A DNA stretch of 64,000 nucleotides from an uncultured bacterium (GCA_964410905.1 CAYPIR010000003.1:79986-143985); one strand, 5' to 3'; positions 11,695-22,647 are shown, counted from the first letter of the stretch. Program-made: numbers and translations. The notes: a model not told the origin generated them from the sequence alone.

Positions 11695-11771
11695 CGCGGG
11701 GTGGAGCAGCTCGGTAGCTCGTTGGGCTCATAACCCAAAGGTCGCTGGTTCAAATCCAGCCCCCGCTACCA
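11695..11771 (+). tRNA. tRNA-Met (CAU), initiator (fMet) type
   Basis: Near-identical to E. coli tRNA-fMet (CGCGGGGTGGAGCAGC...GGGCTCATAACCC...GGTTCAAATCC...CCCCGC.ACCA). Positions 1:72 are unpaired and the anticodon stem has three G:C pairs. The CCA is encoded. Confidence 0.9.
11727..11771 (+). repeat. attL: 45-bp direct repeat, the 3' half of tRNA-Met
   Basis: 45/45 positions align with 22555..22599, with 2 mismatches (G/A and C/T) that are compensatory in the T-stem. Confidence 0.75.
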
Positions 11772-11783
11772 TCTACAATAAAA

Positions 11784-11818
11784 GGGGTTACGAATAAAAT
11801 CGTGACCCCTTTTTTTTC
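11784..11818 (+). terminator. rho-independent terminator after tRNA-Met
   Basis: Hairpin GGGGTTACG...CGTGACCCC followed by T8. Confidence 0.6.
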
Positions 11819-11883
11819 TTCATTTCCACGAAAATCTAACAAAAATCTAACAGACGTATTTTGCGAACAGATACAATATCGCT

Positions 11884-12858
11884 ATGAGTAATCCGAAACG
11901 GCAGCACTTTCTGCCACAGTTCTATCTGGAAGGTTTTGCATCCCAGCCCGTATCGTCCCCTCCAAAGTTCTGGTTCTATGATTTTCTGCAAGGCGCATGG
12001 GATGTCAGAACGCCCACGAACACCGCCGTTCGAAAACATTATTACACCGTCGAGAATCAAGAGAAGGAGAAGGATTACCAAGTTGAGAAATACTTCGCAG
12101 ACATTGAGGGTAAGGTGAAAGACCTCATGGTGCGAAAGCTGAATAAAGGGTTGAAACTAAAAGGGTCAGAGCATATTGCGACGCTGGCTGTTTTTGTGTA
12201 CTTAATGCGTTCACGAGTGCCTTATTTCAGAGACAAAATGGAAGCGTTCAATGTCGAAATTATTGAGCAGATGATGTCAATGATGCGTCAGCAAGCAAAA
12301 AAGAACCCCAATTATTTGAAGTGGTTAGAAGAAGACATGGAAAAGAAAACGGGGGAAAAAATGGGGTTGGATACTATGGACCCCGATGATTTTATGAATA
12401 CCGATAAGTTCAAGATTAAAATGCATCAGAATTTTCTCGTGGGGCTATGCCTTAGCCACATTGATAAAGCGGCGAGTATCATTTCTAGGATGAATTGGTC
12501 GATTATGCGAACAACGGAAGACGCCCCATTTATTACCTGTGATAACCCCTATTTTGAAATCAATCCTAAAAGCACGAGTTCTTGGGATAGAGCAGGCTTG
12601 CTAAATAAGGACATAGAAATATCACTTCCGCTTAGCTCAACGCTCTGTTTTTTCGCAAGTTGGACAAAAGCTCCCAGCTGGTTTAGTTTGGCTTCTCCGA
12701 GGCATGTTCATCAGTTCAATCTTCGGTCGATGATGGGCGCAAGAGAGTTTATTGTCGCCAGCACTAAACAATTCCCAGCGCATGAAAACTTGGAGAGAAA
12801 AACGAAAGCATTGAAGGAAGATTCAAAGTCTCCTCGAACCGCTATGACGAAGCCCTGA
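11884..12858 (+). CDS. DUF4238-family protein (candidate antiphage protein, Rst_DUF4238-like)
   Basis: 324 aa. The N-terminus MSNPKRQHFLPQFYLEGF matches the hallmark DUF4238 start (H[FY][VL]PQFYL..F). Confidence 0.65.
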   Translation: MSNPKRQHFLPQFYLEGFASQPVSSPPKFWFYDFLQGAWDVRTPTNTAVRKHYYTVENQEKEKDYQVEKYFADIEGKVKDLMVRKLNKGLKLKGSEHIATLAVFVYLMRSRVPYFRDKMEAFNVEIIEQMMSMMRQQAKKNPNYLKWLEEDMEKKTGEKMGLDTMDPDDFMNTDKFKIKMHQNFLVGLCLSHIDKAASIISRMNWSIMRTTEDAPFITCDNPYFEINPKSTSSWDRAGLLNKDIEISLPLSSTLCFFASWTKAPSWFSLASPRHVHQFNLRSMMGAREFIVASTKQFPAHENLERKTKALKEDSKSPRTAMTKP

Positions 12859-13083
12859 TAGCACGCATAGCCACGTTTCCAGCCCATTTTGGACCCAGCT
12901 CCAACACCTATCACCAAACGCAAAACATAAGCAAAACGAGGCTAAAACGAAGCGATAAAGCAATTAGAGCTGGAGGAAAGTCAGGAGGGGCTTGATTCAA
13001 GCTTAATTAAGCTTGCACTTAGTATGTTTGAGGAGATAATACTCTTGGGTTTCTAACCATCGAAAGCAGAAAGGGGTCCGCAT

Positions 13084-13356
13084 ATGTCTATCGAAATACC
13101 AATGTCTGAGCGTTCCAAAAAATACGGCTATGTTTTTTGGGGGAAAAGAGCCGATTCCCAAATCGAATCTCTGTTGAAAGAAAAACAAAAAATCAGTGTG
13201 AAATTTAATGGCGTAGACTTAGGAGAAAAAAATATAGATTGGAAGCATCGCCGTATCTCTCTTGGGTGGACGCAAACAAGAAGTTTGCCGAATAAAAAAG
13301 CGTCATTTTTTTTAACCGTATCAAAGGATAATTGGCTAAACATAAAAACGGTATGA
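13084..13356 (+). CDS. hypothetical small protein (90 aa) overlapping the methyltransferase start
   Basis: An ORF only. It overlaps the start of the downstream methyltransferase gene by 25 nt. No recognisable motif. Confidence 0.3.
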   Translation: MSIEIPMSERSKKYGYVFWGKRADSQIESLLKEKQKISVKFNGVDLGEKNIDWKHRRISLGWTQTRSLPNKKASFFLTVSKDNWLNIKTV

Positions 13357-21047: not shown

Positions 21048-21228
21048 GCAAACGAAATTGCTTACAGTCCAACAAGTAGCAGAAATTTTGAGCGTTCAGA
21101 CCAGCTGGGTCTACGAGCAAGCGAGGAAGAATAAAATTCCACACGTTCGATTGGGAAAGTATCTCCGTTTCAAAATGGATGAAATTCACCAGTATGTGGA
21201 AGCGAAAAAGACCGAATCTTCTTCCTGA
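21040..21228 (+). CDS. excisionase/AlpA-family helix-turn-helix DNA-binding protein
   Basis: 62 aa. LLTVQQVAEILSVQTSWVYEQARKNKIPHVRLGKYLRFKMDEI is a Xis/MerR-superfamily HTH. Lies immediately upstream of the integrase. Confidence 0.6.
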   Translation: MNEQTKLLTVQQVAEILSVQTSWVYEQARKNKIPHVRLGKYLRFKMDEIHQYVEAKKTESSS

Positions 21229-21278
21229 CAGTAAGGGGCGGATTAAAATCAAAAAAAAAAGAAGGTTGATAATGCATT

Positions 21279-22478
21279 ATGCTCGGCTCAATTAGAACAA
21301 GGTTCTCTAAGCGTGACCCGAAAAAGCCTCTCTATTATCTCTGTTATAGGATTGGGAAAAAACAGGTGTGGGAGGCTGCGGGTTCGCATAAAAAAACAGC
21401 TGAGAGAAAATTAACAGAAACAATCAATGCGCTCAATGACGGGACGTACGTTAAGGTCAAAGAAATATCATTTGCTGAATTCGCTCGTGAATGGCTTCAG
21501 ATTTATGCGTCAGTACATGTCAAGGAATCCACTTTCCGCTCCTATCGAAGCGTTATTACGCAGCATCTGATTCCAGACTTGGGGCATTACCCTGTGACAT
21601 TGATTACCCCTCACGTTGTTCAACAGTTTCTCTCTGCGGTTCTTAAAAAAACTACTAAACGAAAAAAACCGACGACTACAAAGACCGCAAACAATATGCT
21701 CAAGCTAATGAAAACCGTCTTCAAATATGCGTGCAAATGGGGTTACATGAGGTTTAATCCTGCCGAAGACATTGAATCATTTCCCGTTTCACACGAAGAA
21801 ATGCATTTTCTTGAGCCAGAAGACATCAGGGCGTTGCTTAATGCCTCTCTTGAGCCGTTCCGAACGCTTTTTTTGACAGCAGTGATGACGGGAATGAGAC
21901 GTGGTGAGCTGCTTGCGCTGCAATGGGGGGATATTGACTGGAACAGCAGCAGGATTTTTGTTCGGCGGACTCTTTTTTGGTTCAGTTGCGAAGAAGCCAG
22001 TGAAAGAAAGCATGATGAGCGATGGAAGTTTGGAACACCCAAAACAAAGAACTCTTATCGAACGATACCAATGTCACCTGAATTGAAAAAGGCGCTTCAG
22101 ATTCACCACATTAAATCGCCAGTCAACGAACATGGCTTGGTTTTTTGCAGCAAAGAAGGAAAGCCGATTGACCCCGATAATATGGTGAAGCGTGAATTTC
22201 ATTACGCTCTCACGACAGCAGGATTGCGGAGGATTCGTTTTCATGACTTACGGCATACGTGCGCAGCCGTGCTAATTGCAGCTGACTTTAATCCAAAATT
22301 TATTCAAATGTTTCTGGGACATGCATCTATCCAAACGACAATGGACCGCTATGGTCATCTTTTCAAAATTGATAATGAAAAAGTGGGTGACCGAATCGAC
22401 CAAACGGTTTTTGAAAAATCTAACAAAAATCTAACAGAATCAGCCGAGCCATCAAAATCAACCCAAATGCAAGATTGA
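21279..22478 (+). CDS. tyrosine-type site-specific integrase
   Basis: 399 aa. The C-terminal catalytic region shows ...FHDLRHTCAAVLIAAD...LGHASIQTTMDRYGHL, the R..H.R.Y pattern. Confidence 0.9.
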   Translation: MLGSIRTRFSKRDPKKPLYYLCYRIGKKQVWEAAGSHKKTAERKLTETINALNDGTYVKVKEISFAEFAREWLQIYASVHVKESTFRSYRSVITQHLIPDLGHYPVTLITPHVVQQFLSAVLKKTTKRKKPTTTKTANNMLKLMKTVFKYACKWGYMRFNPAEDIESFPVSHEEMHFLEPEDIRALLNASLEPFRTLFLTAVMTGMRRGELLALQWGDIDWNSSRIFVRRTLFWFSCEEASERKHDERWKFGTPKTKNSYRTIPMSPELKKALQIHHIKSPVNEHGLVFCSKEGKPIDPDNMVKREFHYALTTAGLRRIRFHDLRHTCAAVLIAADFNPKFIQMFLGHASIQTTMDRYGHLFKIDNEKVGDRIDQTVFEKSNKNLTESAEPSKSTQMQD

Positions 22479-22554
22479 CGTAACTCATTTTCCCCACTAA
22501 CATATCTCGGCGATTAAGAGGAAAGGTAATCATCCCTGGGGTTCAAAAGCGACC

Positions 22555-22599
22555 CTCATAACCCAAAGGTCACTGGTTCAAATCCAGTCCCCGCTACCA
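22555..22599 (+). repeat. attR: displaced 3' half of tRNA-Met
   Basis: ctcataacccaaaggtcActggttcaaatccagTccccgctacca compared with the tRNA copy (G and C at the two capitalised positions). The base change preserves T-stem pairing as A:U. Confidence 0.75.
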
Positions 22600-22611
22600 G
22601 TTACGAGAAAA

Positions 22612-22647
22612 GGGGTTGCGTAAAAAAACGCAGCCCCTTTATAATTT
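22612..22647 (+). terminator. terminator-like hairpin after attR
   Basis: GGGGTTGCG...CGCAGCCCC followed by a T-rich run. Mirrors the terminator after the intact tRNA. Confidence 0.4.

Follow-up and report, generated by a model that had tools for sequence, protein, structure and literature searches.

The window analysed here is a 64,000-nucleotide stretch of a metagenome-assembled contig (GCA_964410905.1, CAYPIR010000003.1:79986-143985) from the chromosome of a member of Candidatus Omnitrophota, a phylum known almost only from metagenomes. Between its hisG and mgtC genes we found an intact initiator tRNA-Met gene, an insert of about 10.8 kb carrying a tyrosine integrase gene, and, at the far end of the insert, a second copy of the last 45 nucleotides (nt) of the tRNA gene. 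A first-pass annotation, made by a model from the sequence alone, had read this arrangement as an integrative island. The anatomy of the site supports that reading, as do CAT-anticodon tRNA 3′ fragments across the integrase clade and the adjacency of hisG and mgtC without an island in 20 species. The features of the site and of its putative recombination module, in amino acids (aa) where they encode protein, are as follows.

11560–11588, minus strand: hisG promoter, TTGACA-17-TAAAAT (promoter scan, 11/12 matches)
11593–11611, plus strand: weak arm-like relic, TTGAAA..AACAAAAATCTA, outside the island and about 127–134 nt upstream of the attL core
11695–11771, plus strand: intact initiator tRNA-Met (CAT), the presumed regenerated target gene at attL (ARAGORN; Rfam tRNA, 62.8 bits; cloverleaf)
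11727–11771, plus strand: attL core, 45 nt of identity that extend from the first anticodon-loop base (CTCATAA) to CCA, with T-stem pair 49:65 as G:C
11780–11813, plus strand: intrinsic terminator hairpin after the regenerated tRNA, probably from the island side (terminator scan: 14 pairs and a T run)
11831–11854, plus strand: candidate P′ arm, tandem 11-mers AAAATCTAACA x2 plus GA, 59 nt after the tRNA end
21040–21228, plus strand: excisionase-family HTH_17 protein, 62 aa, candidate recombination directionality factor (Pfam HTH_17, 6e-13)
21279–22478, plus strand: tyrosine integrase, 399 aa, with SAM-like, central and catalytic domains (Pfam PF00589, 3.6e-30; PF14659; PF22022)
22415–22438, plus strand: candidate P arm, tandem 11-mers AAAATCTAACA x2, inside the 3′ end of int and starting 140 nt upstream of the attR core
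22555–22599, plus strand: attR core, the displaced tRNA 3′ fragment, with the T-stem pair as A:U and no 5′ half
22610–22640, no strand assigned: hairpin AAAGGGGTTGCG...CGCAGCCCCTTT after the displaced fragment, resembling the attL hairpin in sequence

ARAGORN and Infernal both called one tRNA-Met(CAT), at 11695–11771 on the plus strand, and neither called a second tRNA near 22555. The idea that the 45-nt fragment belongs to a full second tRNA gene is excluded by these calls and by the missing 5′ half. Three G:C pairs ending the anticodon stem, together with A11:U24, are marks of a bacterial initiator tRNA; the gene at 11695–11771 has both, as well as a mismatch at 1:72 (C x U), which is the sole non-pair in its cloverleaf. 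This mismatch sets C1 opposite U72 instead of the usual C1 x A72, and the T is present in the gene and in the fragment; the related elements L164, L167 and L169, introduced below, have the usual A at position 72.

The two cores lie in direct orientation and are identical at 43 of 45 positions. The differences are 11744 G versus 22572 A and 11760 C versus 22588 T; cloverleaf threading shows them to be opposite members of canonical pair 49:65, the first of the T stem. As the first-pass annotation had pointed out, the G:C of the gene and the A:U of the fragment both pair. Hybrids would give G.U or A x C. The chance that two random substitutions in 45 nt would strike one of the five T-stem pairs with pairing kept is about 0.002. 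Therefore, both core versions were shaped by selection on a working tRNA, in line with the earlier suggestion that the displaced copy derives from a functional tRNA rather than from random decay. The covariation could reflect either divergence in two lineages before integration or a compensated substitution in the functional copy afterwards. Because a hybrid would yield the mispairs, a point of strand exchange between 11744 and 11760, and with it the T loop, can be ruled out.

Similarity between the two ends continues beyond the cores through the downstream hairpins, reaching 85% over 86 nt. The earlier observation that similar hairpins follow both copies also held: they are about 73% identical, with paired changes within the stem, and only the left one was called a terminator by the scan tool. 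From its sequence, the hairpin at 22610–22640 was probably the former terminator of the original tRNA and of the convergent mgtC gene.

Next to the fragment lies the recombination module, again as first described. The catalytic residues R...HxxR...H...Y can be read in the integrase sequence, and its scores against the XerC, XerD and integron models (43–87 bits, with cutoffs of 220–335) place it outside the Xer/integron subclass. Its family is large, with 4828 matches at E <= 1e-20, the closest being 59% identical. Residues 1–64 precede the SAM-like domain and form an N-terminal extension before the core-binding domain. The 62-aa open reading frame (ORF) upstream of int scored 46.8 bits against TIGR01764 ('excise'), for which the cutoff is 28.8 (2.7e-12). 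The P and P′ arms are a perfect 24-nt direct repeat of each other. The exact 11-mer AAAATCTAACA occurs four times in the window, each time within these arms, and in a circularised element both arm pairs would flank the core.

Relatives of the integrase are found at sites of the same design. Four of them (L162, L164, L167 and L169; 47–59% identical) adjoin the 3′ halves of tRNA genes with a CAT anticodon, which begin at CTCATAA, and in all four, as in the window, the identity block starts exactly at C32. The 3′ halves are of initiator type in L164, L167 and L169. That of L162 reads as another CAT tRNA, which has an anticodon stem without the three G:C pairs and is thus probably not an initiator. 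An HTH_17 gene precedes the integrase gene in L162, L163, L164, L167 and L169. L163 showed no tRNA fragment or convincing att repeat beside its integrase gene and was therefore uninformative about target sites.

The distances within these elements are similarly constant. In L162 (integrase 59% identical), the tRNA 3′ half lies 37 nt after the int stop codon, and a 22-nt stretch of arm sequence, within the 3′ end of the int gene and 137 nt upstream of the core, matches the window exactly although the integrases are only 59% identical. L164 (50%) has an initiator-like 3′ half and a hairpin about 1 kb after int. In L167 (47–50%), the first int is followed at a distance of 144 nt by a 45-nt initiator 3′ half, with TTGCTAATG x2 located 138 nt before the core and GTGCTAGCA x2 located 68 nt after it. 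L169 (49%) is a complete island, in which eno, ftsB and a full initiator tRNA are followed by about 14 kb and an identical 45-nt copy; its tandem arms, (A/G)TGCTAACA, are found 69 nt downstream of the tRNA and 138 nt upstream of the right core. The arm-to-core distance is therefore 137–140 nt in the window, L162, L167 and L169, and tandem arms spaced by 11 nt begin 59–69 nt after the tRNA end (window, 59; L167, 68; L169, 69). As read from these sequences, the clade is characterized by a CAT-anticodon tRNA target, a block start at the anticodon loop and a common arm geometry. Because these traits are shared across the clade, the tandem AAAATCTAACA repeats are credible as candidate arm-type sites that the integrase probably binds.

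Two of these relatives have further peculiarities. L167 holds two elements with integrases of the same clade in tandem (4711–11182), parted by the 45-nt initiator-tRNA 3′ half, and the sequence that follows the second integrase gene (11183–11368) shows no tRNA fragment. In L169, a 16-nt sequence with the initiator tRNA 5′ end (ATATCGCGGGGTGGAG) is duplicated 72 nt upstream of the gene (1390–1405 and 1462–1477), and an extra tandem arm-like pair, GTGCTAACGGCAGGCTAACA (11304–11323), follows the integrase gene with no core after it. This extra pair suggests that L169 is a composite island.

The insertion locus could be compared with that of about 20 Omnitrophota species with HisG proteins 85–92% identical to that of the window. 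In 20 related species the gene order is tRNA-Gln, GHMP kinase, hisG, mgtC, tsaD, gatB, and the window differs from this order only by its insert. hisG directly adjoins mgtC in these species, showing that the island is absent from every one; the hisG–mgtC spacer measures 59–101 nt in 13 of the 20. The hisG promoter motif is kept upstream of hisG in 20/20 species, with the mgtC stop about 15–30 nt further on in most. This promoter is the last sequence on the left side common with the relatives and marks the left limit of conserved host DNA. The first-pass annotation had proposed looking for an empty tRNA-Met site in relatives. The 20 species provide sites empty of the island, but the tRNA gene is absent from them too. 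A conspecific empty site was not found: an MgtC scan of metagenomes returned nothing above 64% identity, a search of 5.8 billion proteins returned nothing above 77%, and an exact MgtC look-up returned only the contig of the same organism. In NCBI records, the integrase and MgtC each occur on one contig, and both also occur in Logan assemblies.

HisG itself is far better conserved (85–92% to the window, and up to 99% among relatives L002–L022) than its neighbours GHMP kinase (about 59%), TsaD (about 66%) and GatB (about 72%). The hisG gene was placed at 10590–11477 in the window; its true start is probably the GTG at 11465, which is preceded by GGAG, and not the TTG at 11477. In one relative, L015, a stretch of N interrupts the hisG–mgtC spacer, and on either side of it stands the same sequence of about 55 nt from the hisG promoter. 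The stretch is probably a scaffolding artefact, but variable content could be concealed there, at the position of the insert in the window.

The arrangement might instead reflect a chimeric assembly, in which two tRNA-containing contigs were joined, or a non-mobile event in which a segment with the tRNA 3′ half was duplicated locally. The window belongs to a 145-kb contig assembled from a metagenome, and such contigs can be chimeric at conserved tRNA sequences. However, two separate runs, SRR11845624 and SRR11845625, gave Logan contigs that agree exactly with the window over int–attR–mgtC (20371–22881 and 22431–27344) and over a stretch that starts within the attL core and enters the island (11745–15218). 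All Logan contigs with int, mgtC or the DUF4238 gene described below have the integrated arrangement. Furthermore, both flanks are the neighbours expected from synteny in relatives. A chimera is very unlikely because the Logan contigs match exactly and the flanks are each other's normal neighbours, and a duplication leaves int, xis, the matched arms and the clade-wide architecture unexplained. We therefore regard an artefact or a simple duplication as having next to no likelihood. The contig ends at 22431 and 11745 are not where attP or attB branching would be predicted and coverage seems low; we drew no conclusion from them.

Taken together, these findings make it highly probable that the window contains a 10.8-kb integrative island (interior 11772–22554, cores 11727–11771 and 22555–22599) that arose by integrase-driven insertion into a tRNA gene. 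This reading is supported because the integrase clade recurs beside CAT-anticodon tRNA 3′ fragments and 20 related species lack the island. We propose that the element's own integrase, of heterobivalent type, acted on an attP core of 45 bp and recombined it with the 3′ portion of the initiator tRNA-Met gene. Strand exchange would most likely take place in the 7-nt anticodon loop CTCATAA, a crossover position that we infer. The island would thereby supply a new 3′ half (T-stem G:C) and terminator, keeping the tRNA at attL functional, and the original 3′ half (T-stem A:U) with its terminator would be displaced 10.8 kb to attR. The crossover position is likewise what identifies, by inference, the copy at attR as displaced host sequence and the copy at attL as island-borne. 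The integrase probably binds the AAAATCTAACA x2 arms on both sides of the core and, with the HTH_17 protein, would permit excision as a circle. The island is apparently excision-competent and may still be mobile today. Transfer, if any, would depend on helpers because no conjugation or virion genes were found in it.

Several observations weigh against this interpretation. The available assemblies showed neither an attP nor an attB junction, and base composition is only modestly deviant. No arm-binding Pfam model matches the N-terminal 64 residues of the window integrase, and its relatives P0002 and P0004 match Arm-DNA-bind_4 only below the cutoff (E = 0.0026 and 0.028, respectively). Finally, the hisG–mgtC spacer holds no tRNA gene in any of the 20 relatives; a pre-existing host tRNA-fMet with promoter and terminator at this position is an assumption of the model.

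The last point raises the possibility that the tRNA-Met locus is itself of mobile-element origin, in which case the whole block from about 11592 to 22769, from the hisG promoter to the mgtC stop, would be foreign to its position. For example, an earlier relative of the element with a complete tRNA-fMet could have landed in the hisG–mgtC spacer and left the tRNA behind as a landing pad. We found this tRNA in 0 of 161 fetched loci apart from the window's own contig. Both the closer group and the distant group L024–L031 lack it, which makes the tRNA a derived feature of the window lineage. Three weak hints, noticed post hoc, point in the same direction. The hairpins after the two copies are homologous (those in L169 are unrelated), the unusual U72 is present in both copies, and the arm-like relic at 11593–11611 lies upstream of the tRNA at roughly P-arm distance and shares a 12-nt exact match with the P arm, a score reached by 3/500 shuffles. 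The relic, however, is short and A-rich, and it ties as the best non-self arm match in the 64 kb, another site in the window scoring equally. Similar terminators would also be possible if the element had cycled through the same locus in related hosts, and the 116 nt upstream of the attR core retain no similarity to a tRNA 5′ half or promoter. In addition, the window genome is a long, isolated branch, with GatB at most 78% identical to that of any relative (81–95% between the relatives and their nearest neighbours), which makes an ordinary lineage-specific relocation of the tRNA plausible. On balance, we consider delivery of the tRNA by an element unlikely. If true, it would mean that tRNA-targeting islands can seed a new tRNA gene and landing pad where none existed, and that the cell's initiator tRNA, or one copy of it, is wholly or partly of mobile-element origin.

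Base composition offered limited help in judging the favoured reading, insertion of an island into a host tRNA gene. The interior had been described as visibly more GC-rich than the flanks. Its GC content (0.434 versus 0.417 for the rest of the window) indeed exceeds the maximum of 126 same-size windows outside it (0.433), but only slightly, and the excess comes mainly from 17–19 kb, where the o360 and serine recombinase genes lie. At third codon positions (GC3), the genes for DUF4238 (0.50), o360 (0.565) and the serine recombinase (0.60) alone deviate clearly from the flank genes (0.389 +/- 0.023), and the restriction–modification genes are host-like; the suggested GC and codon-usage check thus picked out three genes and a small shift. 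The contrast drawn between TGA/TAG stops inside and TAA stops in the flanks did not hold up: TGA or TAG ends 8/11 island genes and also 17/41 flank ORFs of at least 150 aa (Fisher p = 0.09), and TAA ends 3/11 and 24/41, respectively. The strongest compositional signal is a change of sign in GC skew across 12–22 kb. On the plus strand lie 10/11 island genes, whereas nearly all flank genes are on the minus strand. A second stretch of plus-strand genes, with GC skew near zero and unlike the rest of the window, is found at 41578–45555.

We searched the ORFs of the island for protein families with Pfam, PHROGs and NCBIfam, and for defence genes with PADLOC. In addition to xis and int, the interior contains the following features.

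11884–12858, plus strand: DUF4238 protein, 324 aa, candidate single-gene anti-phage defence, nearest attL (Pfam PF14022, 3e-40; PADLOC DUF4238-Pers, 2e-15)
13084–13356, plus strand: ORF of 90 aa without a family match, overlapping the start of the methyltransferase ORF
13332–15551, plus strand: type II DNA methyltransferase, 739 aa, with DUF1156 and N6_N4_Mtase (PADLOC MTase_II, 3.6e-190; Pfam PF01555, PF06634)
15548–16426, minus strand: type II restriction endonuclease of the HindIII family, 292 aa (Pfam PF09518, 6.5e-65; PADLOC REase_II, 3e-48)
16600–17110, no strand assigned: set of three ~170-nt direct repeats that separates the endonuclease gene from o360
17183–18265, plus strand: o360, 360 aa, of a rare family with an MgsA/RarA C-terminal-like domain (GC3 0.565)
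18279–18905, plus strand: small serine recombinase of resolvase/invertase type, 208 aa (Pfam Resolvase, 2e-26; PHROG DNA invertase; GC3 0.60)
19037–19780, plus strand: o247, 247 aa, with a sub-threshold Pfam match only and no PDB match
19859–20197, plus strand: SpoVG-like protein, 112 aa, a predicted backbone gene (Pfam SpoVG, 4e-8)
20151–21047, plus strand: o298, 298 aa, an orphan ORF directly upstream of xis, with no family match

The genes nearest attL point to a role in defence. A protein of the DUF4238 family has been found to protect E. coli against T7 (PMC9122126). The methyltransferase and endonuclease genes are convergent and overlap by 4 nt, and the PF09518 match spans 282 of 285 profile positions, that is, its full length. 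By family criteria, the pair is predicted to form a type II restriction–modification system of the HindIII family. AAGCTT occurs 14 times in the window against 24 expected (ratio 0.58) and is not among the most avoided palindromes; this mild depletion indicates nothing firm regarding the specificity of the system. With the restriction–modification pair and DUF4238 as cargo, whose defence role is assigned by family, the element is best called an integrative defence island. A restriction–modification system is also part of the cargo of L169.

The serine recombinase is 72% identical to the resolvase of L163, compared with only 55% between the integrases, and the SpoVG-like protein is 41% identical to a SpoVG-like gene product of the second element in L167. 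The predicted backbone, comprising the serine recombinase, SpoVG-like, xis and int genes, is partly common to related elements. The o360 family has 38 cluster representatives in 1.84 billion, and its profile matches an MgsA-type C-terminal region in PDB at 1.7e-8; a single-sequence AlphaFold model with a pLDDT of 43 was too poor for use. The segment with o360 and the serine recombinase (17183–18905) has a GC3 of 0.57–0.60, far above the rest of the island and the host (0.39), and may be a separately acquired or nested module. We found no homologue of o247, which is unrelated to the 252-aa helix-turn-helix protein at the same position in L163. A search of 5.8 billion proteins returned no homologue of o298 but itself, and no PDB relative was found.

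The island could also be a phage satellite or a degraded prophage remnant, with int–xis and cargo left over from, or parasitic on, a virus. In the searched phage and plasmid collections, no integrase exceeds 31% identity to that of the island. Integrases of Streptococcus satellites (PICI-like) and of Clostridioides prophages, at about 30% identity, are among the best-scoring matches in the phage collection. A size of about 11 kb, an int gene with an AlpA-type helix-turn-helix gene and defence cargo at one end all resemble satellites. Defence hotspots have been described in P2/P4 elements, P4-like satellites among them (PMC9122126). On the other hand, the family searches of the island ORFs returned no capsid, terminase, portal, tail, primase, packaging or hijacking family. 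The same searches returned no relaxase, coupling protein, type IV secretion or replication family, three ORFs being without any family. There were likewise no virion genes in the observed stretches of L163, L164, L167 and L169, and the intact state of int, xis, both cores and both arms misfits a decaying remnant. We consider a satellite or a prophage remnant improbable, and prefer to regard the element as an integrative island in its own right.

One part of the interior resisted explanation. Two of the ~170-nt direct repeats are about 76% alike and the third is degenerate; GTCTCGAATACAG is invariant, and the period is not a multiple of three. Overlapping ORFs on the minus strand (16451–16894 and 16675–17097) encode the same motif of about 35 aa, CIRD...TSSAT.TF.CSV.MSY.F.STPR, in different frames, and differences between the repeats show a weak third-codon-position bias on the minus strand. 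There was no Rfam match to the repeats, no Pfam match in the overlapping ORFs and no TRF call. RNA folding excess was absent on both strands (z about -1), and neither the related elements nor the DUF5659 genes found in L162 and L169 resemble the repeats. They may represent a frameshifted duplicated gene or recombinase sites.

The island is a clean example of a tRNA-targeting element in Omnitrophota in which the att core, candidate arms, xis and int are defined to the base. In the literature on Omnitrophota, integrases and tRNA, the best-matching paper does not contain an element of this type. The covarying T-stem pair indicates that an essential tRNA can exchange part of its sequence for the island's version and keep its pairing. 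The system is a possible tool for site-specific integration and may aid the annotation of several thousand related integrases. As a small vehicle for restriction–modification and DUF4238 defence genes, it leaves the current understanding of such islands unchanged. Two features go beyond the routine: an arm geometry kept across the clade, and a locus that lacks the target tRNA gene in all relatives.

Among known systems, heterobivalent integrases of the lambda Int type offer a model for the recombination module. The likenesses are the short repeats flanking the attP core at conserved distances, the xis-like gene directly upstream of int and the N-terminal extension of the integrase before its core-binding domain. 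By contrast, the arms in the window are simple candidate sites, one tandem pair on each side and all direct, with the P arm lying within int, and the N-terminal domain matches no arm-binding model.

The pSAM2-type elements of actinomycetes are small integrative elements of about 11 kb with xis–int–attP at one end and att sites that run from the anticodon loop to the tRNA 3′ end. The island resembles them in size, in the gene order ...-xis-int-attP and in the extent of att identity. It differs in having no recognisable Rep or FtsK-like transfer gene, in its phylum and target tRNA, and in its defensive cargo. As for that cargo, the clustering of the HindIII-family restriction–modification pair and DUF4238 at the end distal to int is reminiscent of the defence hotspots of P2/P4 elements (PMC9122126).

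The closest likeness is to tRNA-gene islands of the kind catalogued in Islander, specifically the anticodon-centred 'A' attP class in the scheme of Williams 2002, which accounts for 2083 of 3919 islands in that collection (PMC4383910). A block that starts at the first anticodon-loop base is a hallmark of this class. A regenerated tRNA gene together with a displaced fragment marks the ends of such islands (PMC4383910), and the window has both: an intact tRNA at one end and a 3′ fragment in the same orientation at the other, with identity running from the anticodon loop to the 3′ end. A tyrosine integrase gene (PF00589) lies inside, near one end, the insert is absent in relatives, and a tandem array occurs at the same tRNA in a relative (L167). 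The differences are the host, which belongs to a phylum essentially unexplored for such islands, an integrase distant from those in the searched collections, and a target tRNA that is absent from this position in related species. We regard the element as most probably a canonical tRNA island of the anticodon-loop type. Its recombination module is well preserved, and it is known in kind but found in a little-studied phylum.

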